In this document: positions 1-15,092 of the stretch, in pieces
Layout: every line of letters starts with the position of its first letter
Numbering within the stretch: position 1 is the stretch's first letter
Assembly (NCBI GenBank): GCA_964291395.2
Contig: OZ219858.1
Span: forward strand, 544,001-608,000
Length of the DNA: 64,000 nt
Direction: 5' to 3'
Source: Alphaproteobacteria bacterium
GTDB taxonomy: Bacteria > Pseudomonadota > Alphaproteobacteria > UBA2966
Program-made: the position numbers and the translations under genes
Notes under the pieces: model-generated
Seen by the model: the letters and a program-made list of their open reading frames with translations, nothing else
Databases searched by the model: none
Told to the model about the DNA's origin: nothing

Positions 1-85
1 CTCATGACTTGATTCTATCGATCCCGTTTCATACTCTTCGCTGTGCCCCACGCGGGCTCGAAAACGACTGCACGCGAGGTGTGCG

Positions 86-994
86 ATGTGCGGAATCGCT
101 GGCGTCCTCTTCAAGAATCCCGGACTCAACGCGAAGCTCGGCGAGACCCTGATCGAAATGCTCGATGGGTGTCAGCACCGCGGACCCGATTCGACGGGAT
201 TCGCGCTGTACGGCGGCGACTCGGACGCCTCGGAGTTCGTCTTGCGGTTCCATGTCGGCACGGGGGACGAAGGTTCCGAGAACGTGGATCGCGTGGTACG
301 GGCGCTGAAGGAGTTCGAAGCCCAAATCATCGCCGGCGAGCACGTCGGCAGCACCTACCGGGTAACGGTGCGCTACGAAGGCGACGTCCAGAAATTCGCC
401 TACGCCATGGAGCATGCGGCGAAGCTGTTCTCCATCGGTAGCACCCTCGACATCGTCAAGGACATCGGCGGCGCCCACGACGTCGACGAGGTTTACGACG
501 TCCAATCGGTGGACGGCAGCCACGGCCTCGGGCACGTGCGTCTCGCCACGGAGTCCGACGTCAAGCCGGAAGCGGCGCACCCGTTCTGGGCCACCGGCTT
601 CTCCGATGTGGCGATCGTCCACAACGGTCAGATCACCAACTACTGGAAGATGCGCCGGTTGTTGGAACAGCGCGACTACGAGTTCCATACAGACAACGAT
701 TCCGAGCTCATCGCGGTCTACCTTGCCGACAAGCTCAAGCACGGAGATACCCTGAAGCAGGCCCTTGAGACCTCGATCGACGACCTCGACGGCACGTTCT
801 CGTTTCTCGTGTCGACCAAGGACGAGATGGGCTACGCCAAAGACCGTCTCGCCGCCAAACCGATGGTGCTCTACGAAAACCACGATCTCATCGCCATCGC
901 CTCGGAAGAGGTCTCTCTCAACCGCCTGTTTCCGGGTCAGGCCCTCGATACGACCGAACCGCCGCCTGGGACCTGCGCGACATGGTCACGGTAG
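86..994 (+). CDS. mgsA: Class II glutamine amidotransferase, N-methylglutamate synthase subunit A-like
   Basis: N-terminal MCGIAG (Ntn nucleophile Cys), HRGPDSTG, GHVRLATES, HNGQITN, TDNDSE; lies upstream of GltB-like and GlnT-type genes. Confidence 0.85.
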   Translation: MCGIAGVLFKNPGLNAKLGETLIEMLDGCQHRGPDSTGFALYGGDSDASEFVLRFHVGTGDEGSENVDRVVRALKEFEAQIIAGEHVGSTYRVTVRYEGDVQKFAYAMEHAAKLFSIGSTLDIVKDIGGAHDVDEVYDVQSVDGSHGLGHVRLATESDVKPEAAHPFWATGFSDVAIVHNGQITNYWKMRRLLEQRDYEFHTDNDSELIAVYLADKLKHGDTLKQALETSIDDLDGTFSFLVSTKDEMGYAKDRLAAKPMVLYENHDLIAIASEEVSLNRLFPGQALDTTEPPPGTCATWSR

Positions 995-2967
995 ACCTGA
1001 GCGAGCTGCCGGTCCGCGAAGCCAATGACCTGATCCGGAAGGCGGGCGCGGACGGCGAGGACGTCGAAGTCCTCAACCCGGATGCGCGGCACCACATCGG
1101 GGTCGGTTTGGCCCATCCCATCACGGTGCGCATTCGAGGATCGGCCGGCTATTTCTGCGCCGGTCTGACCGACGGACCGCGCTTCGAGGTCGAGAGCAAC
1201 GTCGGCTGGGGCCTCGCCGACAACATGTACCAGGGTTCCGTGGTCGTCGGCGGCAATGCCAGCGCCATTCCCGCCGTCGCCATCCGCGGCGCCGAGGTCG
1301 TGGTCAAGGGGAACATGGGTTCGCGCGCCGGCCAGGTCATGAAGGAGGGCACGCTGCTCTGCGGCAAGAACGCAAACTTCATGGCCGGCTACATGATGTA
1401 CGGCGGGCGTATCGTGATTCTCGGCGATTCCGGTGAGCGCGTGGGCGAAGACATGACCGGCGGCGAGATCTTCGTCGGCGGCAAGATCCAGTCGCTGGGT
1501 GCCGCGGCCATGCAGACCGACATGGAGAGCGCCGAGGACGACGAACTGCGCGCGCTTCTCGACAGGTACGAAATCCCTTTCGAGGGGACCTTCAGCAAGA
1601 TCGTCAACGAAGGCGGCAATCTGCGCTATGGCAACCCGGAGCCGCGGCGCCGGGCCATCCCGTTCTTCACCTTCTCGGGTAAGTCGAGCTACTGGAACGA
1701 GAAGGTCCAGGAGGACATCTACATCAAATCCAAGATCGGTCGTTACCGCATCCGGGGTTATGGCGGTGCGCGGGCGTTGCCGCATCTCAACGACATAGCG
1801 TTCAAGAAGGACCTGAGCGCCGCCGGCAGCGAGACAGACGCCGTCAGCAAGGTCAACCTGCACACCGAAGTCGGCGGGCGCCACGGGGCCAAACCGCTGA
1901 GACTTTCCATGCCGGTGATGATCTCGCCGATGAGCTATGGAGCGCTGAGCAAGTCGACCAAGCTTGCCATGGCCAAGGCCGCGGCCATGGTCGGAATCTC
2001 GGAGAATACCGGCGAAGGCGGGATGATGGACGAGCAGCGCGAAGCCGCCGATCAGCTCATCTTCCAGATGCTGTCGGGGCGCTTGGGTTGGAACGTCCAC
2101 GACATGCAGCGGGCCGATGGTCTTGAGATCTATATCAGCCAAGGCGCCAAGCCCGGGTTCGGCGGCCAGCTTATGGCGGCCAAGGTCACCGAGGAGATCG
2201 CGCGGATCCGTGGCATTCCCCACGGCATCGACCTGCGCTCGCCGTCACGCCACCCGGACATTCTCGGTGCCGACGATCTGGTCATCAAGATCGAGGAGAT
2301 GCGCGAAGCCACGGGCTATCGCATCCCGGTCGCCGTCAAGCTCGGTGCCGGACGCGTGCGCGACGACATCAAGATTGCCGTGAAGGACGGCTTCGATTTC
2401 ATCGAGCTCGACGGCATGCAAGGCTCCACCGGAGCGGCCGGCAATGAGGTGCTCGATTATTGCGGCATCCCGACCATCTCCGCCATCCAGGAGGCCGAGG
2501 AGGCGCTCGCGGACATCGGCCGCCGTCAAGACGTCGACATCGTGCTCATGGGCGGCATCAAGGACGGAATCGATACCGTGAAGGCCTTGGCGTTGGGGGC
2601 CGACGCCATCGGCATGGGAACCTCGGCGATCATCGCCGCGGGCTGTATCGCCTGTATGCAGTGCCACGTCGGTTCCTGCGTCGTCGGGATCGCCACGCAG
2701 GACCCCGAACACGAGAAGCGCTACAACGTGGATATCGAGGCACGGAATGCGGCGCGGTTCCTTGAGAGCGTCCGCTGGCAGATCGCGGCGCTGACCCGTG
2801 CGCTCGGTTACGACGATATCCGCCAGCTCAATCGTGAGGACCTGGTGGCGCTGACGCCCGAGGCGGCGGCCATAACCAAGCTTCCCTACGCGCCGGAGTA
2901 CCGCTCCGGCGAACACCAGATTCAGGAGACCGTGGGCATTCAACGCTCCGGGTCACAGCTCCAGTGA
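982..2967 (+). CDS. Fusion of GXGXG (MgsB/GlxC-like) domain and FMN-binding glutamate-synthase (MgsC/GlxD-like) domain
   Basis: N-terminal GXGXG repeats (GSAGYFCAG, MKEGTLLCG, MTGGEIFVGG); C-terminal PMSYGALS, NTGEGG, QGAKPGFGG, DLRSPSRHPD, VKLGA, and Fe-S motif CIACMQCHVGSC. Confidence 0.9.
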   Translation: MVTVDLSELPVREANDLIRKAGADGEDVEVLNPDARHHIGVGLAHPITVRIRGSAGYFCAGLTDGPRFEVESNVGWGLADNMYQGSVVVGGNASAIPAVAIRGAEVVVKGNMGSRAGQVMKEGTLLCGKNANFMAGYMMYGGRIVILGDSGERVGEDMTGGEIFVGGKIQSLGAAAMQTDMESAEDDELRALLDRYEIPFEGTFSKIVNEGGNLRYGNPEPRRRAIPFFTFSGKSSYWNEKVQEDIYIKSKIGRYRIRGYGGARALPHLNDIAFKKDLSAAGSETDAVSKVNLHTEVGGRHGAKPLRLSMPVMISPMSYGALSKSTKLAMAKAAAMVGISENTGEGGMMDEQREAADQLIFQMLSGRLGWNVHDMQRADGLEIYISQGAKPGFGGQLMAAKVTEEIARIRGIPHGIDLRSPSRHPDILGADDLVIKIEEMREATGYRIPVAVKLGAGRVRDDIKIAVKDGFDFIELDGMQGSTGAAGNEVLDYCGIPTISAIQEAEEALADIGRRQDVDIVLMGGIKDGIDTVKALALGADAIGMGTSAIIAAGCIACMQCHVGSCVVGIATQDPEHEKRYNVDIEARNAARFLESVRWQIAALTRALGYDDIRQLNREDLVALTPEAAAITKLPYAPEYRSGEHQIQETVGIQRSGSQLQ

Positions 2968-5498
2968 GTGTTCAAGGAACGCCGACGCGGGTGAACGTCG
3001 AGTACCCGCCCGAACTCCTCGACGACACCGACGACACCGACTTCGTGCCGGCGCCCTGTCAGGTGGCCTGCCCCATCGGCACGGATGCGCCGTCCTACAT
3101 CGCCTACATCTGGGAAGACAAGGTCGAAGAGGCCTTCGAGGCGATCACCGCCACCAATCCGTTCAGTTCCATCTGCGGCCGGGTTTGCGATGCCCCGTGC
3201 GAGCCGGCCTGCCGCCGCGCCGACTCCGACGGCCCCCTGGCGATCCGCAATCTCAAGCGCTTCGTCATGGATCAGCTCGGAAAGGATCACCATCTGCCTC
3301 CCGTCGAGGTCACGAAGGACAAGACGGTGGGCATCGTCGGTTCGGGGCCGGCGGGCATGACCGCCGCGCAGGACCTGGCCGAGGCGGGCTACGAAGTGCA
3401 CCTCTACGAGATGACCGACCGCCTCGGCGGCATGATGGTCTGGGGCATCCCGGCCTTCCGGCTTCCAGTGGGGATCATCCAGGAGGACATGGACCGAATC
3501 CTCAATCACTGCCCGGGCATCAAGGTGCACCTCAACACCGGGCTCGGACATGAGGTAACCCTCGAAGAGCTCAAGGAGCGGCACGAGGCGGTGTTGCTCT
3601 GCATCGGCTCCTGGTGGGGCAAGACCATGGGCGTGCCAGGCGATGAGGACCCGCGCGTCGTCGACGGCGTGTCCTTCCTGCGGCGCGTCAACGGCGGCGA
3701 ACGGCCCGAACTGCCCGAGACCGTCGTGGTCGTCGGTGGCGGTGACGTCGCCATGGATGCCTGCCGCGTGGCCAAGCGCCTGCCCGGCTGCAAGCACGTC
3801 AAGGTCGTCTATCGTCGGGGGCCGGAGCAGATTCCCGCCCGCAAGGACGAACTCCATGGCGCCATCAAGGAGGGCGTCGAGTTCGTCTACAACACGCAGC
3901 AGGTCGCCGTGGTGAAGAGCGGCAACGAGATCGCGCTACGTTGCGTCATCACCAAGATGGGGGAGCCGGAAGAGGACGGCCGCCGAAGGGCCATCCCGGT
4001 TGAAGGGACGGAGCACGACATTCCCTGCGGCATGGTGATCTCCGCGGTCGGCCAGAAGGCGGAGAGCGACCACCTCGATCAGCTCGGTTTCATGGACTGG
4101 GACCGTATCCACGCCGACTTCGACTCGATGCGTACGGCGGACCCCAACGTTTTCGCCGCCGGAGACGGTGCCTTCGGGGGCTCGACCATCGTGATCGCCA
4201 TGAACCATGGCCATCGCGCGGCCTACTACGTGAAGGCCTATCTGGAAGGGAACGAGGTTCCTGCGTCCTACCGTACCCCCTACCGGACGCGCCGCGTGCC
4301 CGTCGCCCAGGACTCCAATTGGGAGCTTTTCCCGCGCCGGGAGCAGGAGTTCCACGGCCTCGGGGCGAACCCGGTGGCGTTTCCGGAGATCGAGTCGCGC
4401 TACGACGCGCAGACGGCGCGCGACGAGGCGGCGCGCTGCTACCGCTGCGATGCGGAGAACGGATCGGCCGACTACACGGTGTGGAACCGGGAGGATATCT
4501 TCGCCATGGCGCGCATGGCGCCGTCCGACGAGGCCAAGCAGCAGGCCATGCTGTTCAAGCGGATGCAGAACCGCGAGAATCCGTTTCCGGAGGATCGCCC
4601 GCCGACGATCGACGATCTGGTTTTCCTGTCGGCCAACCTCTCGCGCCTCGTGATCGATCCCTACCGCGATTCCTGTGTCACGGAAACCGGCATGATGGGC
4701 GGGTCCCTGGTGATGAAGTACCCCATGATGGTAACCGGCTTCGACGATGTGCCCGACGAGGTCCGCGAGGGACTGGCCGCAGGCATAACGGAACCCAATG
4801 TCGCCTACGTGGGCTTCCGCCGCCTGCACCGGAACGTGCCCTGGCTGCAGCTCGTCGTGCCGGGCGAGAGCGAGCCGGACCCGGACGCCATCGGCGTCGT
4901 CTACGTGACCGGAGAAACCTTCCGTCCCGTGCCGCCGGAACGAGCGAACGAGGGACAGGCCTTGGGCCTGGTGGTCCGCGGGTCCAACGTCGACGAGGCG
5001 GTGCCTTTCGCCCTCGACAGCGGTTTCGATCTTCTGGTCGTGGATTCGACGATCGGAATCGAGACCGCATGGCCGGAGCTTGAAGGCGCTCCCGATCTGT
5101 CGGCGGCACGCGACACGGTACGCAAGCTGCGCGCGCTGAAGCGCGAAGGCGACATCGAGATCGCCTACTTCGGCGGCATCCGGTCGGGGACCGACCTCGC
5201 CAAGCTGCTCGGCCTCGGCAGCCACGCCGGCATCGTCGGCGTCTCGATGGGCCTCGCGCTTGGCGGCGAGATCGTGCCGTCGGGCAATCGTCAGGCCATC
5301 GTTTTCCCGCCCGACCTGACGCACGAGGATCTGAGCACTGGCGCCGCCAACTATCTCAAGGCGTCCAACAGCGAGTGCTCGATGATGGCGCGCTGCGCCG
5401 GCAAGACGAACGTCCACAACATCGAGCCTGAAGATCTGCGCTCCATCACTATCGCGACCGCGGAAGCCACCGGCATTCTGCTTGCCGGCACGCAGTAG
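2964..5498 (+). CDS. GltD-like Fe-S/FAD NAD(P)H oxidoreductase fused to a degenerate FMN-glutamate-synthase-type C-terminal domain
   Basis: APCQVACP, ICGRVCDAPCEPAC, GSGPAG, GGGDVAMD, VYRR, FAAGD, EAARCYRC; C-terminal DDLVFLSANLSR, GGIRSGTDLAKLLGLG, GKTNVHNIEPEDL; GTGA overlap with upstream stop. Confidence 0.85.
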   Translation: MSVQGTPTRVNVEYPPELLDDTDDTDFVPAPCQVACPIGTDAPSYIAYIWEDKVEEAFEAITATNPFSSICGRVCDAPCEPACRRADSDGPLAIRNLKRFVMDQLGKDHHLPPVEVTKDKTVGIVGSGPAGMTAAQDLAEAGYEVHLYEMTDRLGGMMVWGIPAFRLPVGIIQEDMDRILNHCPGIKVHLNTGLGHEVTLEELKERHEAVLLCIGSWWGKTMGVPGDEDPRVVDGVSFLRRVNGGERPELPETVVVVGGGDVAMDACRVAKRLPGCKHVKVVYRRGPEQIPARKDELHGAIKEGVEFVYNTQQVAVVKSGNEIALRCVITKMGEPEEDGRRRAIPVEGTEHDIPCGMVISAVGQKAESDHLDQLGFMDWDRIHADFDSMRTADPNVFAAGDGAFGGSTIVIAMNHGHRAAYYVKAYLEGNEVPASYRTPYRTRRVPVAQDSNWELFPRREQEFHGLGANPVAFPEIESRYDAQTARDEAARCYRCDAENGSADYTVWNREDIFAMARMAPSDEAKQQAMLFKRMQNRENPFPEDRPPTIDDLVFLSANLSRLVIDPYRDSCVTETGMMGGSLVMKYPMMVTGFDDVPDEVREGLAAGITEPNVAYVGFRRLHRNVPWLQLVVPGESEPDPDAIGVVYVTGETFRPVPPERANEGQALGLVVRGSNVDEAVPFALDSGFDLLVVDSTIGIETAWPELEGAPDLSAARDTVRKLRALKREGDIEIAYFGGIRSGTDLAKLLGLGSHAGIVGVSMGLALGGEIVPSGNRQAIVFPPDLTHEDLSTGAANYLKASNSECSMMARCAGKTNVHNIEPEDLRSITIATAEATGILLAGTQ

Positions 5499-5610
5499 GC
5501 AGTCGTCGCATTCGAGTCCGATGTAGACCCACCTCTATTTTCCTGCCGTGGCGAAGTTCCTAAACTGCGGCACATCACGAGACAGCGAAAACATCAGGGA
5601 GGGAGTTGAT

Positions 5611-6930
5611 ATGGCTGTCGATCTGGCCAAGGTCGCGAAAGACCGGAAGATCAAATATTTCCTCGTCAGTTTTGTCGATCTGTTTGGCGGCTTGCGGGCG
5701 AAGCTGGTGCCCGCCCGTGCGATCGGGGACATGCAGAAGGAAGGTGCCGGCTTCGCCGGCTTCGCGGCTTGGCTCGACATGACGCCCGCCGATCCGGACA
5801 TGTTCGGCGTGCCCGATCCCGACAGCCTCATTCAGCTTCCCTGGAAGAAGGACGTCGCGTGGGTCGCGGCCGACCTCTGGATGAATGGCAAGGAGGTCGA
5901 GGCCTCGCCCCGCATCATCTTGAAGCGCCAGATCGAGAAGGCCGCCAAGAAAGGCTACCGCCTCAAAACCGGCGTCGAATGCGAATACTTCCTGGTCATG
6001 CCGGATGGTACGGCGATCTCCGATCCCTTCGATACTCAGGAGAAACCTTGTTACGACCAGCAGGCCCTGATGCGGCGCTACGACGTCATCAGCGAGATCT
6101 GCGATGCGATGAACGAACTGGGCTGGGGGCCCTACCAGAACGACCACGAGGACGCGAATGGCCAGTTCGAGATGAACTGGGACTATTCGGACTGCCTGAC
6201 AACGGCGGACCGGCATGCGTTCTTCAAGTTCATGGTCAAATCCGTCGCCGAGAAGCATGGCCTGCGGGCGACGTTCATGCCGAAGCCCTTTGTCAGCCTG
6301 ACGGGCAATGGCTGCCACTGCCACGCATCGCTTTGGGACAAGGCAGGCCGCAAGAACCTTTTCCTCGACAACAAGGACGAGATGGGGCTGTCGAAGCTCG
6401 CCTACAACTTCCTCGGCGGAGTTCTCAATTCGGCGGGTCCCCTGTGTGCCTTTTTCAATCCGACGGTGAACTCCTACAAGCGCATCAACGCACCCGCCAC
6501 GTTGTCGGGCGCCAGCTGGTCGCCGAACTCGGTGACCTACGGCGGGAACAACCGGACCCACATGGTTCGAATTCCGGATGCCGGCCGCTTCGAATTCCGC
6601 CTCATGGATGGGTCGGCCAACCCGTATCTGCTCCAGGCCGGCCTGCTGGCCACGGGTCTCGACGGCATTCAGAACAAGCGGGATCCGGGCAAGCGGCTCG
6701 ACGTCAACATGTACGAGTACAGGCGGGCCTCGGAGCTTCGCCGCCTGCGTATACGGAAGCTGCCGCTGAACCTCCTCGACGCCCTGCGTCTGCTCGACAA
6801 GAGCAAGATCATCCGTGCCGGGATCGGCGACGAGTCGGTCGACAGCTACGTCAAGCTGCGGATGAACGACTGGCTGAGCTACGCCGGCCACCTTACCGAC
6901 TGGGAGCGCGAGCACACGCTCGACTGCTGA
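5611..6930 (+). CDS. gmaS: GlnT-type glutamine-synthetase-family protein, probable gamma-glutamylmethylamide synthetase
   Basis: RAKLVP, GAGFAGFAAW, KPCYDQQALMRRY, YQNDHEDANGQFEMN, TFMPKPF, NNRTHMVR, C-terminal WEREHTLDC; RBS GGGAG before ATG 5611; adjacent to mgs genes. Confidence 0.85.
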   Translation: MAVDLAKVAKDRKIKYFLVSFVDLFGGLRAKLVPARAIGDMQKEGAGFAGFAAWLDMTPADPDMFGVPDPDSLIQLPWKKDVAWVAADLWMNGKEVEASPRIILKRQIEKAAKKGYRLKTGVECEYFLVMPDGTAISDPFDTQEKPCYDQQALMRRYDVISEICDAMNELGWGPYQNDHEDANGQFEMNWDYSDCLTTADRHAFFKFMVKSVAEKHGLRATFMPKPFVSLTGNGCHCHASLWDKAGRKNLFLDNKDEMGLSKLAYNFLGGVLNSAGPLCAFFNPTVNSYKRINAPATLSGASWSPNSVTYGGNNRTHMVRIPDAGRFEFRLMDGSANPYLLQAGLLATGLDGIQNKRDPGKRLDVNMYEYRRASELRRLRIRKLPLNLLDALRLLDKSKIIRAGIGDESVDSYVKLRMNDWLSYAGHLTDWEREHTLDC

Positions 6931-6944
6931 ACCGCCGAGCTCCG

Positions 6945-6974
6945 ACACGGAGAGCGGCCGGCCGTTCTCCGTGT
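6945..6974. terminator. GC-rich hairpin between convergent gmaS and zur
   Basis: ACACGGAGAGCGGCC/GGCCGTTCTCCGTGT inverted repeat with one mismatch; no U-tract. Confidence 0.45.
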
Positions 6975-7077
6975 TCGGCGATTTCGCTCGCCCGCGTCGA
7001 GTGCCGCCTGGCCATTACGCCGGACGCTCCCGCCGTGCACCTCGATCAACCGTTCGGGTGGGGTTTCATGACGCGTG

Positions 7078-7578
7078 TCAGGTCTGCGCCCGTTCACGGC
7101 ACTCGCCGCACAGCCCGGTCACCTCGATGGTCTGCTGGCTGATGCGGAATCCGAGAGCATCCGCCTTCTCGCGTATGAGCTTGCTGATGGCCGGGTCTTC
7201 CATCTCGGCCACCCGGCTGCAGTTCCCGCAGATGAGGAATTGCCCGTTGTGCGCGTGCTCGGGCTCGCCGCATCCGACATAGGCGTTGAGGGACTCGATG
7301 CGATGGACGAAACCGTTTTCGACGAGAAAGTCGAGTGCTCTGTACACCGTCGGCGGATCGGCCCGGCGCCCGTCACCCCGCAGGGCATCCAAGAGATCGT
7401 AGGCGCCGACCGGCATGTGATGCTGCCAGACCAGTTCCAGGACTCTCCGCCGCAGCGGAGTCAGGCGCAATTCCCGCTCCCGGCAAACAGCGGACGCGAT
7501 TTCCAACGCCGCGGCGATACATGCTTCGTGGTTGTGATCGTTTGGCCTGAAATCGCTGAGCACGCTCTTGTCCGTCAC
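7078..7578 (-). CDS. zur: Fur-family regulator, Zur type
   Basis: HNHEAC N-terminus, RLTPLRRRVL, PPTVYRALDFL, HRIESLNAY, QFLICGNC, GLCGEC. Confidence 0.85.
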   Translation of the reverse strand: MTDKSVLSDFRPNDHNHEACIAAALEIASAVCRERELRLTPLRRRVLELVWQHHMPVGAYDLLDALRGDGRRADPPTVYRALDFLVENGFVHRIESLNAYVGCGEPEHAHNGQFLICGNCSRVAEMEDPAISKLIREKADALGFRISQQTIEVTGLCGECRERAQT

Positions 7579-7652
7579 AATCTCTCTCCGGGATGAGTGA
7601 GGGGAGCTGACCGATCCAAGATTTTACACTATATCCTCCACAATTTATATTT

Positions 7653-7672
7653 ATGTTATATCGTATTATTAC
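7653..7672. promoter_or_regulatory. Putative Zur box in AT-rich divergent promoter
   Basis: ATGTTATATCGTATTATTAC contains the TGTTATA half-site; lies between zur and a znuA-like remnant. Confidence 0.55.
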
Positions 7673-7700
7673 TGTGAGCCGCCGACCGGTGGGATGGACC

Positions 7701-7915
7701 ATGTTCATGCACGGCAGCGTCAAAGCATGGACGGTCACGCTCTTGATCTTTGCCTCCTGATTCTGACGTGTGGCACCGGCGAAGCGGATGCGTTTGCTGA
7801 GGCCGCCGAGGGTGGGCCGTCACCCCACGGCTGCTCCCTGCGGCCTTCGGACGCGCGCGAACGCCTCGCCATCACCGCGGCGTGAGTTCTCGCGGAGGTC
7901 CTGATCCGCCTGATT
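7701..7915 (+). pseudogene. Eroded znuA-like zinc-binding protein remnant
   Basis: Broken signal-peptide-like start, then GGPSPHGCSLRPSDAR (7811-7858) resembling the ZnuA GASPHxYSLRPSDA motif; divergent from zur. Confidence 0.6.
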
Positions 7916-8053
7916 TGCCTTGTCGCCTCCTTTGGATCCAAGAGGGTCGGTTGCGAACCCGTGCCGAATTCGTCATAAGTTGAGGCATATCGGCGGCCGC
8001 GCGGGAACGGCGGCGTGGCTGCCTCAGCCATACAATGATCGAGAGGGTACGAG

Positions 8054-8812
8054 ATGGAACTACAGCTCAAAGACCGGCCATGCCTGGTGACTGGCGCGGG
8101 CACGGGCATTGGACGCGGCGTCGCCAAAATGCTCGCAGCCGAAGGCGCCAAGGTCGCCATCAACGGGAGGCGAGAGAACCTGTTGAACGAGCTCGCCGAT
8201 GAGATCGTGGCGGACGGCGGTGAACGGCCCACGATCATCGCCGAGGACGTCACCACGAAAGAGGCTCCCGAAGTCATCAGGAAGGCGGTGTATGACGCCT
8301 ATGGCCGGCTCGACGTTCTGGTCAATAATGTGGGAGCTGCCGCGGCGTCGCCGATGGATGCTCCCGACGAGGTCTGGGACAACCTCTTCAACATGAATTT
8401 CGTCCCGACGCGGCGGCTGACGAGCGCTTTCCTTCCGGGCATGCAGGAACAGAAGTTCGGCCGCATCGTCAATCTGACGGGCACCCAGGAGCCTCCGGCG
8501 GCCAGCGCATCGACTGCCGCAAAGGCTGCCGTTCAGGCTTGGTCCAAAGGGCTCGCCAACCAGGCAGGTGCCGATGGAATCACCTCCAACTGCGTTTGTC
8601 CCGGGCGGATCATGAGCGAGCAGGTCGTGGAACGGCTGTATCCTACCGAGGAAAGCCGTCAGCAGTTCGCGGAAGCGAACATTCCCATGGGATATTTCGG
8701 CGAACCGGAAGACATCGCCTGCATGATCGTGTTCCTGTGCTCGCCCATCGCGCGTTACGTCACGGGAACCGTGATCGAAGTGGATGGCGGAATGAAGCGC
8801 TATTCGCACTAG
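8054..8812 (+). CDS. SDR-family oxidoreductase
   Basis: TGAGTGIG, LVNNVG, SxxxK in place of YxxxK, NCVCPG, VTGTVIEVDGG. Confidence 0.9.
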   Translation: MELQLKDRPCLVTGAGTGIGRGVAKMLAAEGAKVAINGRRENLLNELADEIVADGGERPTIIAEDVTTKEAPEVIRKAVYDAYGRLDVLVNNVGAAAASPMDAPDEVWDNLFNMNFVPTRRLTSAFLPGMQEQKFGRIVNLTGTQEPPAASASTAAKAAVQAWSKGLANQAGADGITSNCVCPGRIMSEQVVERLYPTEESRQQFAEANIPMGYFGEPEDIACMIVFLCSPIARYVTGTVIEVDGGMKRYSH

Positions 8813-8896
8813 TGTGGATGGATCGACGTTCCTGCGTTTTGTGCGGTTGGGCCGTGAATCAGGTATAAGGACGGGTTTCGGAGGGCCGAAAACGTA

Positions 8897-9985
8897 GTGT
8901 CAGACGAGCATCCACAGCCTAGGCGACGGCGGGGACGTGGGTTCGTCCGCCTCGTCCTGTTGCTGATCGTGCCGGTTGCGGCCGCGATCAGCGGTCTCTA
9001 CTGGTATGCCCTCGGCGGCCGTTACGTCACGACCGAGAACGCATACGTCAAGACCAACATGATCGCGATCTCCCCGAATATTTCGGGCCGGGTCATCGAC
9101 GTGAAGGTCGAAGACAATCAATCCGTCGACGCAGGAGACGTCCTCTTCCAGATCGACCCGGAACCGCTGCACATCGCCGTCGACCGCGCGGAAGCCCGAA
9201 TCCTTGCGGTGCGCAACGAGATCGAATCGAAACAGGCCGAATATGCCCAGATCGAGGCGGAGATCGGTGAAGTTCTCGAACGCCAGAAGTTCCTGAAGCG
9301 GCAGTACGAACGCCAACAACAATTGCAGGAGCGAGGCGTGGCGACGGCCGTCAGACTTGACGAGGCGGAGAACCTGCTTGCCACGTCCCGGCAGACCGTG
9401 CGAGTGCTGCGCCAGAAGATCCGCCGGGTGGTCGCGGACCTGGGCGGCGATCTGCTGACGCCCGTGGAACGGCACCCCGACTATCTCGAGGCCGAGTCCG
9501 AACGGGATCAGGCCAGGCTGATGCTCAGCTACTCTACGGTATCGGCACCGGCGAGCGGCATCGTCAGCCGCATGCAGCTGCAAGCCGGCGAGTGGGTTGA
9601 AGACGGTGAACCCATCTTCAGCGTCATCGAAAGCAAGGACCACTGGATCGAAGCGAATCTCAAGGAAACGCAGCTCACGCACGTGGTGGTTGGACAAAAG
9701 GTGACGGTAGAGCTCGATGCCTATCCGGATGTCCTGTGGGAGGGTCGGGTCGACTCGATCAGTGCCGCGACCGGTGCCGAATTCTCGATTCTGCCCCCAC
9801 AAAACGCCACCGGGAACTGGGTCAAGGTCGTTCAGCGGCTGCCCGTCCGGATCGCCGTCACGCGAAGCGACGGCAAACCACCCCTGCGCGCCGGCATGAC
9901 GGTCACCGTCTCCATCGACACGGAACGTGAACGTGAGATGCTGAGCATCGCGCGCGAGACATGGGAATCGATCCGAGGCGGATAG
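8897..9985 (+). CDS. emrA: EmrA/HlyD-family membrane fusion protein
   Basis: N-terminal TM helix, TENAYV, ANLKETQL, FSILPPQNATGNWVKVVQRLPVRI. Confidence 0.9.
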   Translation: MSDEHPQPRRRRGRGFVRLVLLLIVPVAAAISGLYWYALGGRYVTTENAYVKTNMIAISPNISGRVIDVKVEDNQSVDAGDVLFQIDPEPLHIAVDRAEARILAVRNEIESKQAEYAQIEAEIGEVLERQKFLKRQYERQQQLQERGVATAVRLDEAENLLATSRQTVRVLRQKIRRVVADLGGDLLTPVERHPDYLEAESERDQARLMLSYSTVSAPASGIVSRMQLQAGEWVEDGEPIFSVIESKDHWIEANLKETQLTHVVVGQKVTVELDAYPDVLWEGRVDSISAATGAEFSILPPQNATGNWVKVVQRLPVRIAVTRSDGKPPLRAGMTVTVSIDTEREREMLSIARETWESIRGG

Positions 9986-11706: not shown

Positions 11707-12786
11707 TCAGTTGCCGATGGCCCTCGACCATTGATCGGTCCAGTCGCTGATGTCGATCCGGCTGAAGTCGAACGTGAGGATGCGTTCCATCGCGGCGCTG
11801 TCCAAGATCATCATCTCCTGGAGCAGCGGCTCCTTTTGCATACGGGCGATGGCGTTCTTGTTGACGGGTACGACCCCCGTCTTCTTGGCCAACTGGAATT
11901 GGAACTCCTCGCCGATGTACTCGTTGAGATACGCGGTTGCGGCCTCGGGAACCTTGGTGCCGTTGACCACGATCATCAGCGTGTACGTCGCTGCACCCGT
12001 GTGATCGTCGGTGATCTTCGGATAAGCCATCGACACGTTCAGACCGGCGTTTTTCATGCGGACGCACCAACCCGCGTGCACCATCGCGGCGTAAATGTCC
12101 CCGGTTTCCAGATGCGTCACGTTGGCGCTGCCACGCTTCCAGTAAGTGAACGGATCGATCTGCTTGATCAGATCGAGACCCGGCTTGATGTTGTCGACAC
12201 CGCCGCCCGCTGCGTAGGCCACCATCGCCACGTTGCTCAAACCGGGGCCCGCCGTGATATCGGGCCACGAGAGTTTCCTCTTGAGATTGGGGTGCACGAG
12301 ATCCTGGAAGGTCTGCGGAACCGGGATGCCGTTGTCGGCGAACTTCTGCTTTTCGTAGCAGACACCGTATTGAGACGTCAGCGTCACGAACTTGTCGTCT
12401 TCATAAAGCGACGCCGGCATGTTTGCCTTGTTCGGGACGAGGTCGTGGTCGATCTTCGCGGCATAGCCGCCCTCGGCGATCGACGGCAGCAACGGTTCTC
12501 CCACTTCCATGACGTCGATGGGAACGTCCCGTCCCCGTGCGGCCACAAGCTTGGCCAGGTTGTCGTGCGGGCTGGCGGTCACGAATTCGATCTTCATCCC
12601 CTTGGCGACAAGCTGCGGGACGATGTGGTCCTCCTGGACCTTGCGCCAGGAGCCTCCCCAAGTGCCGACGCGAAGTGTCATACCGTCGAATTCGCCGGCG
12701 GCCACGGCACCCGGGAACAGCACGATCGCCATGGCGCCTGCAGATGCACCGACGATGGCCGCCTTCACGTAGTTCATTATTTGCAT
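11707..12786 (-). CDS. Extracellular solute-binding protein (PotD/PotF-like)
   Basis: RBS AAGGAG before ATG 12786, signal peptide, VGTWGGSW; no permease genes adjacent. Confidence 0.8.
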   Translation of the reverse strand: MQIMNYVKAAIVGASAGAMAIVLFPGAVAAGEFDGMTLRVGTWGGSWRKVQEDHIVPQLVAKGMKIEFVTASPHDNLAKLVAARGRDVPIDVMEVGEPLLPSIAEGGYAAKIDHDLVPNKANMPASLYEDDKFVTLTSQYGVCYEKQKFADNGIPVPQTFQDLVHPNLKRKLSWPDITAGPGLSNVAMVAYAAGGGVDNIKPGLDLIKQIDPFTYWKRGSANVTHLETGDIYAAMVHAGWCVRMKNAGLNVSMAYPKITDDHTGAATYTLMIVVNGTKVPEAATAYLNEYIGEEFQFQLAKKTGVVPVNKNAIARMQKEPLLQEMMILDSAAMERILTFDFSRIDISDWTDQWSRAIGN

Positions 12787-12964
12787 GATGTTGTCTCCTT
12801 GCGAGACGAATGAATTGGAAAGACCGCCGCCCCTTCCGGCCGGCCGGCCAAATCTCACCACGCTGTTAACTGACCAATCGACAATCGATGCGCCGACCTT
12901 CAAATTCCCGGCTGGTAGAGTCGCCGCCTGTGTCCGTTGACGCGCCTTCTTCCGATTACTTCGA

Positions 12965-13816
12965 TTAGAACGGTCGATCTCCCTTAAGGGTGACCCGCTG
13001 GAGGTGCCTGCGACGGGGACTGAAGTCCCGTTCGGAATAAAAATAGTCGGCGCTGACCCGATGCAGGGTGCAGCGGTTATCCCACATGGCGATTGAGTTG
13101 ACGCGCCAGTGAAAGCGGCACGAGAAATCGGGGTTCTCCGCGTGACCATACAGAAAATCGAGGATGGCTGCGCTTTCCTTCGGACTCATGCCCTCGAGGG
13201 AAGCGCAGTTCTTGCGGTGAAGATAGAGCGCCTTTCTGCCTGTGACCGGATGGGTTCGCACCACGGGATGGGCGGCGACGAAGTCGCCGGCATCCTCGAT
13301 CGCGGTCATGCCCTGGAACCGGCTGTAGTTCGCGACCCCCCCCTTGAAGACGCATTTCAGACCGTCCAGCAGGCCCCTCATGGTATCGGAGAGCGTTTCA
13401 TAGGCCAGATACATATTGGCGAAATGCGTATCGCCGCTGAACGGGGGAACGTCACGCGCGTAGAGCACGGAACCCAAGGGCGGTTCTTCGAGAAACGGCA
13501 GGTCGGTATGCCAGCCGTCTCCCCAGTTGTGATGTTCCTCCGACTCCTTGACGACCTCGACGATTTCCGGGTGTCCCGGCATGCTCCGCGTCAGCGGATG
13601 GACGTGCAGGTCGCCGAAACGGCGGGCGAACGCCTTGTGCTGGCCGGGTGTGAGTTCCTGGTTGTGGAAGAACAGGACGAGATGGTCGAGAAACGCGTCG
13701 TAGATCTCTGAGAAGGTTTCGTTGTCGAGCGTTTCGGAGAGATCGATGCCGGCGATTTCTGCGCCCAGCGCGCCGGTCACGGGATGGACTTCGATCCTGT
13801 CATAGTTCTCGCGCAT
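12965..13816 (-). CDS. TauD/TfdA-family 2-oxoglutarate/Fe(II) dioxygenase
   Basis: LGAEIAGIDL, WHTDL (HxD), HPVVRTHPVTGRKALY, WDNRCTLH. Confidence 0.92.
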   Translation of the reverse strand: MRENYDRIEVHPVTGALGAEIAGIDLSETLDNETFSEIYDAFLDHLVLFFHNQELTPGQHKAFARRFGDLHVHPLTRSMPGHPEIVEVVKESEEHHNWGDGWHTDLPFLEEPPLGSVLYARDVPPFSGDTHFANMYLAYETLSDTMRGLLDGLKCVFKGGVANYSRFQGMTAIEDAGDFVAAHPVVRTHPVTGRKALYLHRKNCASLEGMSPKESAAILDFLYGHAENPDFSCRFHWRVNSIAMWDNRCTLHRVSADYFYSERDFSPRRRHLQRVTLKGDRPF

Positions 13817-13959
13817 CGATACCTCGTGCGCGGCGCTCCTGGCCGCAAGCGCCTTTGGACAATCCGGCTCGAACGCCTCTCCCGACACCCGAGTCCGACC
13901 CGCAAGGCATGTTAGACCTGCGCTCCCGGAGCCACAAGTAAGCCCAGGCGCGCGGGGTG

Positions 13960-14065
13960 TCAGGAATACCGCAGAATTTCCGGCAGATCCCGGGCGCCAT
14001 GAAGCACGCGTACGATCAGCGGCGGATCACGGTCCGGCGTGTAAACGACAACACAGGGGTAGCCG
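13960..14065 (-). pseudogene. ParE/RelE toxin C-terminal remnant
   Basis: VRGYPCVVVYTPDRDPPLIVRVLHGARDLPEIL; the IVRVLHGARD terminus is typical of ParE; no N-terminus or antitoxin. Confidence 0.7.
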
Positions 14066-14135
14066 CGGACCGAACGCGCCCGGCGATGCCGGAATCGCCT
14101 CCGACGGATGCCTTTCGTTGGGCTACCCGGACAAC

Positions 14136-15092
14136 CTAGTAGTCGATCGGCGTCGTCCACTCCGGGTCGTCGTGCTTCGCCCAGTACAGGTCGCGGATCT
14201 GCTCGGTCTTGGGACCGGGCCGGCCGCCGTTGAGCGGTTCACCGTCGATCGTCGTGACCGGCATGATCCCGCCCGCCGTCGACGTAATGAACACCTCGTC
14301 CGCGCCTTTGAGGTCCGCCGTCGGCACCGGGGCGACATGGGTCTTGATCTGCAACTCCTCGCAGAGCTTGAAGGTGACCTTTCGGGTGATACCCTCCAGC
14401 ATGCCGCGGTGCGGCGTGACCGCTTCGCCATCCCTGACAACGAAGACGTTGAACCCGGGTCCTTCGGTTATGTTGCCGTCCTCGTCGGGCATGAGCACGT
14501 TGTCGCCGCCCCGGTCGAAGGCCTCGAACAGGCCGGCGACGAAATCGAGCCGGTTGTAGTTCTTGATCTTCGGATCGACCGCATCGGGCGAGATCCGCGG
14601 TGCCGAGGCGACGATCATGTTGAGCCCCCGGTCCTGGACTTCCTTCTTGATGGTGTCGGAATAGGGTTGGGCGTAGGCGAAGAAGTTGGGTGTCGCGTCC
14701 CGGGGGTCTCGCGATCCCGGCACCGCCGCGCCGCGGGTGCAGATCGGCTTCACCAGGGCGCGCCGCAGACCGGAGCGGCGTACGCATTCGTCCTGGATCT
14801 CGATCAGCTCCTTGCGCGTCACCGGCAGATCCAGCCGCAGCGTCTCGCACGAGGTCAGGAACCGGTCCAGGTGGAGATCGCGGCGGAAGTACTTGCCGTC
14901 CCACACCTTGAGGGTATCGAAGGTGCAGTCGGAGCGCGTGAACCCGAAGTCGAGGACGGAGATCTTCGCCTCGCGGAGCGGCCGGTAGTCGCCGTCTATG
15001 AAGGCGATGCCCTCCGCCGGATCGATATCCGGGCGGGGCGCCTCCGGCGCCGGCATGGGGGATTCGTTCAAGGCACTCATCGCGACCTCCAT
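14136..15092 (-). CDS. PLP fold-type IV aminotransferase, (R)-amine-transaminase-like
   Basis: ISVLDFGFTRSD, HLDRF, DPKIKN (catalytic Lys), TEGPGFNVF, LEGITR, ADEVFITSTAGG. Confidence 0.9.
   Translation of the reverse strand: MEVAMSALNESPMPAPEAPRPDIDPAEGIAFIDGDYRPLREAKISVLDFGFTRSDCTFDTLKVWDGKYFRRDLHLDRFLTSCETLRLDLPVTRKELIEIQDECVRRSGLRRALVKPICTRGAAVPGSRDPRDATPNFFAYAQPYSDTIKKEVQDRGLNMIVASAPRISPDAVDPKIKNYNRLDFVAGLFEAFDRGGDNVLMPDEDGNITEGPGFNVFVVRDGEAVTPHRGMLEGITRKVTFKLCEELQIKTHVAPVPTADLKGADEVFITSTAGGIMPVTTIDGEPLNGGRPGPKTEQIRDLYWAKHDDPEWTTPIDY

Follow-up and report, generated by a model that had tools for sequence, protein, structure and literature searches.

Methylamine turnover through gmaS is a major marine route for nitrogen and one-carbon (C1) units. 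The described systems closest to the locus reported here are the N-methylglutamate (NMG) synthases MgsABC (GlxBCD) of Methylobacterium extorquens, Methyloversatilis universalis and R. etli p42e, which consist of three separate subunits with no reductase among them and are encoded between a helix-turn-helix (HTH)-cupin regulator gene and gmaS. A scheme for NMG synthase (NMGS) that resembles the pairing of glutamine synthetase (GS) with glutamate synthase (GOGAT) is reportedly to be credited to Gruffaz et al. in 2014. PMC6237917 sets out this parallel for canonical NMGS, with gamma-glutamylmethylamide (GMA) and 2-oxoglutarate (2-OG) giving NMG and glutamate at the expense of a reductant that is given as unknown. 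The substrate of NMGS, its use of 2-OG or of glutamate, and its electron source are unsettled according to PMC6237917 and PMC5023235, the latter of which describes the topology of the pathway as awaiting enzymology. The gmaS gene has been placed in about 23% of surface-ocean microbial genomes (PMC7948447).

GOGAT itself, as the GltB-GltD pair of Azospirillum (2VDC/6S6S) and B. subtilis (7MFM), combines a Cys1 amidotransferase, a central domain, an FMN barrel with the QGAKPGxGGQL segment and a C-x5-C-x4-C loop, and a GXGXG domain with the partner GltD, which carries Fer4_20, has two [4Fe-4S] clusters and binds FAD and NAD(P)H. The cysteines of the C-x5-C-x4-C loop are the ligands of the [3Fe-4S] cluster of glutamate synthase (GltS), and the residue at the GGQL position may be the one that reads the amine. 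A further relevant enzyme is pig dihydropyrimidine dehydrogenase (DPD; 1H7W), in which a GltD-like Fe-S/FAD/NADPH module shares its chain with an FMN-type TIM barrel that forms the catalytic site.

We analysed a 64,000-nucleotide window from an Alphaproteobacteria bacterium of the UBA2966 lineage (positions 544,001 to 608,000 of contig OZ219858.1, assembly GCA_964291395.2; G000:C3:544001-608000 in our numbering). Four plus-strand open reading frames (ORFs), at the positions first annotated, occupy 86-6930 of this window and encode an amidotransferase, a fused MgsB-MgsC chain, an 844-aa protein and GmaS. The first three (86-5498), hereafter the triad, have the same domain types in the same order as canonical MgsABC, the same N-terminal nucleophile (Ntn) catalytic residues, an orthologous regulator gene before them and gmaS after them, and they hold the same place beside gmaS in genomes; unlike MgsABC, however, the triad has its B and C subunits fused and includes an 844-aa reductase/pseudo-barrel subunit. 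As judged from sequence, the triad is best explained as an alternative NMG synthase that kept, or regained, the electron supply of GOGAT. The comparisons given below lend good support both to its membership of the NMG pathway and to a built-in NAD(P)H-to-FMN path, and we consider it slightly more probable than its negation that the triad acts as an NAD(P)H-driven, GOGAT-type NMG synthase. A previous, sequence-only reading of this DNA had proposed such a cycle and stated that it knew of no characterised example, though one might exist. For the GltD-linked form this statement held, since our literature searches, whose coverage excluded subscription journals, met with no paper that describes an NMG-pathway cluster with a GltD-type subunit; it did not hold for the GS/GOGAT analogy, which was already in print (PMC6237917). 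What the locus appears to represent, then, is a widespread, reductase-linked variant of NMG synthase.

Subunits of the triad and its partner GmaS

The first gene (86-994; 302 aa) encodes an MgsA-like class II (Ntn) amidotransferase with a GATase_6/7 match and an M-C-G start. It overlaps by 13 nt (982-994) the second gene (982-2967; 661 aa), the fused mgsB-mgsC, whose product carries a GXGXG beta-helix domain at aa 35-171 and an FMN glutamate-synthase barrel at aa ~230-640 (Pfam Glu_synthase match, aa 303-610). A 4-nt overlap (2964-2967) leads into the gene of the 844-aa protein. The N-terminal ~500 residues of this protein (2964-4463) form a GltD/NfnB-type Fe-S, FAD and NAD(P)H module, and its C-terminal ~345 residues (4464-5498) a degenerate, MgsC-like (beta/alpha)8 barrel, recognised by BLASTP to MgsC and from an AlphaFold2 (AF2) model. 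The last gene, gmaS, lies at 5611-6930 (439 aa). The four genes of the sequence-only reading, and the overlaps among the first three, are therefore real, with all four ORFs in place. Judged by homology, the locus has the canonical regulator-mgsA-mgsB-mgsC-gmaS layout, altered by a fusion of B with C and the insertion of one gene.

The amidotransferase retains Cys1, the Arg of HVRLATES, the Asn-Gly of HNGQ and the Asp of NDSE, as does canonical MgsA, and is 36% identical to the MgsA of R. etli and Methylobacterium; an x-C-G start was present in all 62 orthologues with a covered N-terminus. The MgsBC chain is 38-41% identical to canonical MgsC and 35-38% to MgsB (35-41% overall for the triad against canonical MgsABC) and is nearer by sequence to the Mgs/Glx family than to GltB (about 290 bits to MgsC versus 132-147). 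A single high-scoring segment pair covered both MgsBC domains in 65 of 79 orthologues, the remainder being cut by contig ends. Compared with GltB, the triad lacks the central domain (a Pfam search gave no match to Glu_syn_central, PF04898, in any of the three proteins), distributes its domains over three chains, and places GXGXG before the FMN barrel.

The FMN domain of MgsBC aligned to the GltS large chains 7mfm and 2vdc, with QGAKPGFGGQL and GCIACMQCHVGSC in register. The GCIACMQCHVGSC loop has the GOGAT C-x5-C-x4-C spacing, one further Cys and no insertion, and the Cys motif was found in 77 of 78 orthologues. The alignment to 2vdc_A and 7mfm_G showed K, Q and R of QGAKPGxGGQL...R to be kept as well. 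Gln, invariant in 36 sequences and shared with GltB, occupies the GGQL position in the triad, whereas canonical MgsC has Met (31/31) and a paralogous type, encoded upstream of the window and described below, has His or Ile. Canonical-type MgsC also differs in a 17-residue insert in the Cys loop. From two sequences, canonical MgsC had seemed to be without Fe-S cysteines, but a wider alignment limited this to the rhizobial/Methylobacterium-type subgroup (20 sequences), which has 0-1 Cys in the loop; a second gmaS-linked canonical subgroup (12 sequences) and the paralogous set have four. In the class sample, this split of canonical mgsC was seen between loci L116-L127 and L099-L115. Since these 12 canonical-type sequences keep the four Cys, the loop was dropped as a feature peculiar to the triad. 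Many ordinary NMG synthases may thus carry an Fe-S cluster without a known electron donor.

In a quick maximum-likelihood tree rooted on GltB, the FMN domains of the triad formed a clade of their own (SH-aLRT 95), sister to all other Mgs types (99), and the cysteine-less MgsC group was nested among cysteine-bearing ones. The simplest reading of this tree is that the triad represents the most GOGAT-like, early-branching Mgs lineage. By these comparisons the triad falls outside both canonical MgsABC (subunit structure and clade) and GltBD (no central domain, split and permuted domains), and it is predicted to work like both.

In the 844-aa protein, Pfam placed Fer4_20 at residues 30-105 and Pyr_redox_2 at 122-416. 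The NCBIfam model PRK12771 scored 407 bits, under its cut-off of 516, and the GltD-family models were all under their cut-offs. Sequence matches of the reductase module in the PDB were 9bov (308 bits), 9n5u (286), NfnB 4ylf_B (254) and GltD 2vdc_G (201), and the top Foldseek matches were NfnABC, NfnI and GltD. By these matches the module is nearest to the NfnB-type modules of NfnABC/StnABC enzymes (254-308 bits for NfnB-type matches), then to NfnB and GltD, and it differs from GltD further in carrying the pseudo-barrel. Six cysteines (C32, C36, C71, C75, C79 and C83) and the GxGxxG motifs were invariant in 20 sequences. Together with the Cys loop of the FMN domain, all parts of an NAD(P)H-to-FMN electron path appear to be present in the triad, which supports the proposal of the sequence-only reading that the co-encoded GltD module is the electron source. 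An invariant C-x2-C (RCYRCD; residues 492-495, nt ~4437-4448) stands between the reductase module and the pseudo-barrel and aligns with the first Cys of the next Fe-S domain in NfnABC/StnABC-type proteins; with the N-terminal cysteines, it may complete a cluster.

The same reading had taken the whole 844-aa protein for a GltD-like oxidoreductase, which is correct for residues ~30-500 but not for residues ~500-844. The latter matched MgsC at 31-32% identity over ~200 aa (BLASTP, E 1e-17 to 1e-22) and gave weak Pfam FMN_dh/Glu_synthase matches. They lack the QGAKPGxGGxL segment (the substrate loop) and the Cys loop, and keep the phosphate-binding GGxRxGTDxxK. Folded alone, this part gave a confident (beta/alpha)8 AF2 model (pLDDT 89.9), whose nearest solved folds by Foldseek were FMN alpha-hydroxy-acid oxidase barrels (TM 0.53-0.56). 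The full-length AF2 model was moderate (pLDDT 70.9, with the Fe-S region and linkers below 50), and no inter-domain geometry was drawn from it; Foldseek aligned it to DPD over about 900 columns (TMq 0.40). Whereas the barrel of DPD is its catalytic site, that of the 844-aa protein has lost the substrate and Cys loops, and the catalytic barrel is on another chain. The C-terminal barrel is therefore likely to be a docking pseudo-subunit.

Prediction of the complex, which the sequence-only reading had proposed as a check, placed this barrel (residues 500-844) on the FMN domain of MgsBC (residues 1-650 of the whole chain were used), with a score of 0.84 (median of three runs) versus 0.31 for the best of three controls. 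This score is a model confidence rather than a measurement; 58 of 80 solved complexes attained the mark applied to it, as did 2 of 110 mismatched pairs, a rough calibration since our own alignments were used. At least 87% of contacts were common to the runs, and the pLDDT of the partner was at least 88. In the predicted complex the contact surface is on the FMN barrel and takes in its loops 385-393 (QGAKPG) and 551-557 (the Cys loop). We know of no solved complex of such a pair; the barrel-barrel packing may echo contacts inside GltB. A profile search with the pseudo-barrel found 118 representatives at E <= 1e-30, among them library proteins that unite MgsBC with the whole 844-aa architecture (P0127, 1486 aa) or with the pseudo-barrel alone (P0131, 1031 aa). 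These may be natural fusions, or they may be read-through artefacts of the 4-nt overlap, since one sequencing error in such an overlap could create them. Considering the overlapping stops and starts, the invariant gene order described below, and the predicted docking, the best reading is that the three triad genes encode a single enzyme complex.

The fourth gene is, by all comparisons made, a true gmaS, encoding a type III GS-like ligase. Its product matched TIGR03105 at 661.7 bits (cut-off 469.6) and RhGmaS (7CQL) at 638 bits, and it is 64% identical to the glnT found beside mgsABC on Methylobacterium sp. DM1 pLVM1 and R. etli p42e (L093, L094). The residues of the methylamine pocket and catalytic site of RhGmaS, and those that distinguish it from GS, are named in PMC7948447; in the 7cql_A alignment, counted by hand with a numbering offset of 20 also worked out by hand, all ten (Y147, Q175, D177, E179, E186, N188, K30', R312, W300 and A48') were identical in the locus GmaS. 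As in RhGmaS, Trp stands for the Glu of the GS Glu-flap and Ala for GS Asp50', and there is no difference of note between the two proteins. Triad-linked GmaS copies were 67-78% identical to the locus GmaS, and canonical-mgsC-linked copies 62-72%, bar one partial match of 79%. The sequence-only reading was right about the identity of this gene, but its start calls for correction. The frame extends back to GTG 5548, yet alignments with relatives begin no earlier than residue 22 of that longer product, and the start is probably ATG 5611, which has GGAGGGAG as a ribosome site in front.

Distribution and neighbourhoods of the triad

Among the matches listed for the 844-aa protein were at least 120 full-length ones (~830-860 aa, 63-90% identity); where these carry names, the names go no further than "FAD-dependent oxidoreductase" or "glutamate synthase beta subunit-like". 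Loci that encode such a relative numbered 337 in a pattern scan that took one genome per species, mostly in uncultured Alpha- and Gammaproteobacteria and Burkholderiales, with some in Planctomycetota, Latescibacterota and Acidimicrobiia; the one cultured carrier found was Aestuariivirga litoralis KCTC 52945 (L081). No relative of the protein was found in 72,556 plasmid records, apart from an Enterococcus gltA whose match was confined to the GltD part. Locus-level counts were made on the best 80 of the 337 loci. There, the order amidotransferase - MgsBC - 844-aa protein was constant, both halves of the 844-aa protein were in a single ORF (80/80), and an MgsBC-type match lay upstream of the 844-aa gene in 79 loci, the 80th having no upstream flank. 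The triad arrangement is not due to chance.

The sequence-only reading had linked the triad to gmaS and called for a survey of their co-occurrence. The link was clear at the level of the genome and partial at that of the locus: of the 75 loci whose flanks were long enough, 26 had a same-strand gmaS no more than 2.5 kb downstream, and in 20 of these 26 the distance was at most 235 nt. Among 37 fully flanked loci, 13 had a GmaS of at least 60% identity, 14 the regulator, 11 Amt and 6 Sox/Mgd-type genes. Amt and HTH-cupin regulator genes recur in related loci, and Sox/Mgd-type genes flank 10 of the 80. Two Burkholderiales loci (L021, L055) read soxB - triad - soxD - soxA - x - GS-like - HTH-cupin, with a GS-like ligase of 44-45% identity. 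Other loci have unrelated neighbours or other amine genes. In Aestuariivirga sp. (L083:4143-7720 and 13278-14513), for example, the triad stands behind a trimethylamine-dehydrogenase-like oxidoreductase of the old yellow enzyme (OYE)-FMN/FAD type and an MttB-family methyltransferase, and a homocysteine S-methyltransferase gene follows it; in L042 and L070, LarA-like and M20 peptidase genes lie beside the triad.

Genome-level distribution was examined in 301 genomes of the same class, cross-tabulated by hand with identity thresholds chosen after the tables had been seen. The 844-aa protein was present in 15 of them, and the same 15 carry the fused MgsBC type. A GmaS of at least 60% identity was found in 14 of these 15 (the exception being a genome 79% complete) and in 29 of the other 286. 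Of the resulting 43 gmaS genomes, 28 had a canonical MgsC (at least 70% identity to that of R. etli), 14 the triad, one both, and two neither; the last two are incomplete assemblies with GmaS near contig ends. Thus, 13 of the 14 triad genomes with GmaS had no canonical MgsC. By this nearly either/or distribution, the triad appears to replace canonical mgsABC as the partner of gmaS. A GmaS of at least 60% identity was also found in 42 of 50 further triad genomes, hand-picked from the 80 loci, and SoxD-family genes in all 19 triad genomes tested. Full-length GltB was present besides the triad in the source genome and in 5/5 other triad genomes tested, giving 6/6 for the gltB part of the survey suggested by the sequence-only reading. 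Synteny and this distribution support the part of that reading which made the triad an NMG-pathway variant of mgsABC with an added reductase-type subunit; the reaction assigned to it is weighed below.

Proposed reaction and rival explanations

In the proposed mechanism, GmaS would convert glutamate, methylamine and ATP to GMA, and the Cys1 amidotransferase subunit would hydrolyse GMA and hand methylamine to the FMN barrel of MgsB-C. There, 2-OG and methylamine would form an N-methylimine, which FMNH2 would reduce to NMG. Electrons from NAD(P)H would re-reduce FMN by way of the 844-aa subunit, with its FAD and Fe-S centre(s), and of the Cys-ligated cluster of the FMN domain. The pseudo-barrel would perform no chemistry and would clamp the reductase on that domain. 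In sum, the complex would carry out GMA + 2-OG + NAD(P)H -> NMG + Glu, and the NMG would go to a SoxBDAG-type NMG dehydrogenase that yields glutamate and methylene-tetrahydrofolate, so that methylamine nitrogen would enter new glutamate without free ammonia.

Several points weigh against this proposal. Every step is deduced, and so are the substrate, product and cofactor of the triad. The 301 genomes are related and not independent, so their distribution is a pattern rather than a test. No gmaS is adjacent in 49 of the 75 loci (about two thirds), no methylamine-pathway gene lies within ~10 kb in 19 of the 37 fully flanked ones, and, of the 50 further triad genomes, five have only a GmaS of 43-51% identity and three have no match at E 1e-90. 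Such 43-51% GS-like partners occur in Planctomycetota, Latescibacterota and Burkholderiales. Aestuariivirga (G001) carries a complete canonical HTH-mgsABC-gmaS-glxA-mgd cluster (L097) besides the triad, and a second genome (G102) likewise carries both forms; therefore, the triad and canonical mgsABC are not strictly equivalent. Since the four-Cys loop also occurs in the 12 canonical-type MgsC and in the upstream paralogous set, both without a GltD gene, a cluster alone does not imply a dedicated reductase. The six invariant N-terminal cysteines of the 844-aa protein fall short of the full set of GltD, and its Fe-S region was modelled at low confidence. Finally, if the residue at the GGQL position does read the amine, the triad looks there more like an ammonia enzyme.

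This last point leads to the rival that we rank highest, although it seems unlikely, namely that the triad is a glutamine-dependent NAD(P)H-GOGAT whose domains have been split and fused anew. Its role would lie in ammonium assimilation, possibly of the ammonia that methylamine catabolism sets free, and its linkage to gmaS would reflect shared nitrogen regulation rather than shared substrates. All elements of GOGAT except the central domain are indeed present, Gln stands where canonical NMGS has Met, the cysteines of the loop are spaced as in GltB and the Mgs insert is absent, the triad clade branches beside the GltB outgroup in the quick tree, and half of the fully flanked loci are alone or in unrelated contexts. 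Against this rival stand the full GltB that accompanies the triad in 6/6 genomes checked, with gltD beside gltB in the source genome, the presence of GmaS in 14/15 triad genomes versus 29/286, the absence of canonical MgsC from 13/14 GmaS-positive ones, the position of the triad inside a sox/mgd-type operon in L021 and L055, and its kinship to Mgs/Glx in the bit scores given above.

We give a lower probability to a classical, redox-neutral NMGS (glutamate with methylamine or GMA giving NMG and NH3), in which the GltD-type subunit would only prime the FMN or rescue it once oxidised by O2. The 20 rhizobial/Methylobacterium MgsC without Cys ligands are consistent with such chemistry. PMC6237917 reports that M. 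extorquens NMGS makes NMG in P. putida without a dedicated reductase, so NMG synthesis in principle needs no external donor, and the triad takes the place of the canonical enzyme among gmaS genomes. An overlapping 844-aa subunit, invariant in 80/80 loci, would nevertheless be a heavy cost for repair, and the residues of the GOGAT 2-OG site are kept in the triad. The least probable of the rivals is that the triad acts on another gamma-glutamyl amide or amine (ethylamine, small alkylamines or amino alcohols) and forms another N-alkyl-glutamate, methylamine being one of several substrates. The paralogous set 8 kb upstream, with a ligase 29% identical to GmaS, shows that the family has diversified, and the MttB-family and OYE/FAD oxidoreductase genes of L083 and the LarA-like and M20 peptidase genes of L042 and L070 lie near the triad. 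Against this, the partner ligase keeps all ten methylamine-site residues of RhGmaS, and the triad co-occurs with GmaS specifically.

Surroundings of the locus and meaning of the variant

Directly upstream of the locus are a gene of the Amt transporter family and the HTH-cupin regulator gene, which ends 118 nt before gene 1 and whose product is 63% identical to the regulator of the R. etli canonical cluster. The paralogous set lies 4-9 kb upstream of the window (L006:8818-13932 = G000:C3:534818-539932) and encodes a GS-like ligase (493 aa; 29% identity to GmaS) that stays under the TIGR03105 cut-off, together with an amidotransferase, a GXGXG protein, an FMN barrel and a 136-aa ORF. Its barrel is 52% identical to canonical MgsC and has a four-Cys loop with insert; the 136-aa ORF had no Pfam match and is conserved beside the set in L051 and L059. 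The set adjoins the triad in L028, L045, L051 and L059, and its barrel type also occurs in genomes without GmaS (e.g., G258, G263, G006 and G266). It probably represents a separate gamma-glutamyl-amine pathway. Upstream of it, on the minus strand (L006:5575-8542), are a divergent GntR regulator, a deaminated-glutathione-amidase-like CN-hydrolase and a DAO-family FAD oxidoreductase, which may belong to the same pathway.

Elsewhere in the source genome are ordinary gltB and gltD genes, the gltB/gltD pairs being near-duplicates on contigs C1 and C2, one of them split by the start of a contig; since the assembly is rated 9% contaminated, gene copy numbers are to be taken with care. Two complete soxBDAG-type clusters and one partial one (46-55% identity to R. 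etli MgdA), none of them near the locus, could encode the NMG dehydrogenase. Genes unrelated to the triad follow in the window: an EmrA/HlyD-type efflux adaptor (8897-9985, plus strand) and a TauD-family dioxygenase with an extracellular solute-binding protein (11707-13888, minus strand). A promoter and terminator scan over 1-9000 found sites no commoner than in shuffled sequence, and none that was informative for the operon. Contigs of sponge, coral and marine metatranscriptomes contain short, near-identical pieces of each of the four genes, one spanning the mgsA/mgsBC junction (633-1157) and another the mgsBC/844-aa junction (2895-3113). DNA carry-over is possible, and these contigs only hint that the genes occur in such samples; they indicate neither expression level nor transcript ends.

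An NMG synthase that encodes its own NAD(P)H module would make the unsettled points of the NMGS step, its electron source among them, simply assayable, and surveys based on canonical mgsABC only would overlook the pathway in triad genomes (13 of the 43 gmaS genomes sampled). The triad also suggests an evolutionary series from GOGAT to NMGS, and its pseudo-barrel, if the docking role is true, would be a dead enzyme domain reused as a docking module. Taken as a whole, the proposition that the triad is a true "methyl-GOGAT", an early-branching, reductase-coupled NMG synthase whose reductase is held in place by a pseudo-enzyme barrel, with the cysteine-less rhizobial enzyme as a later, redox-neutral derivative, remains tentative, and we would put it somewhat below an even chance. 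If it is true, about a third of gmaS-carrying Alphaproteobacteria (14/43 sampled), as well as members of other phyla, would assimilate methylamine nitrogen, with no free ammonia on the way, directly into new glutamate.

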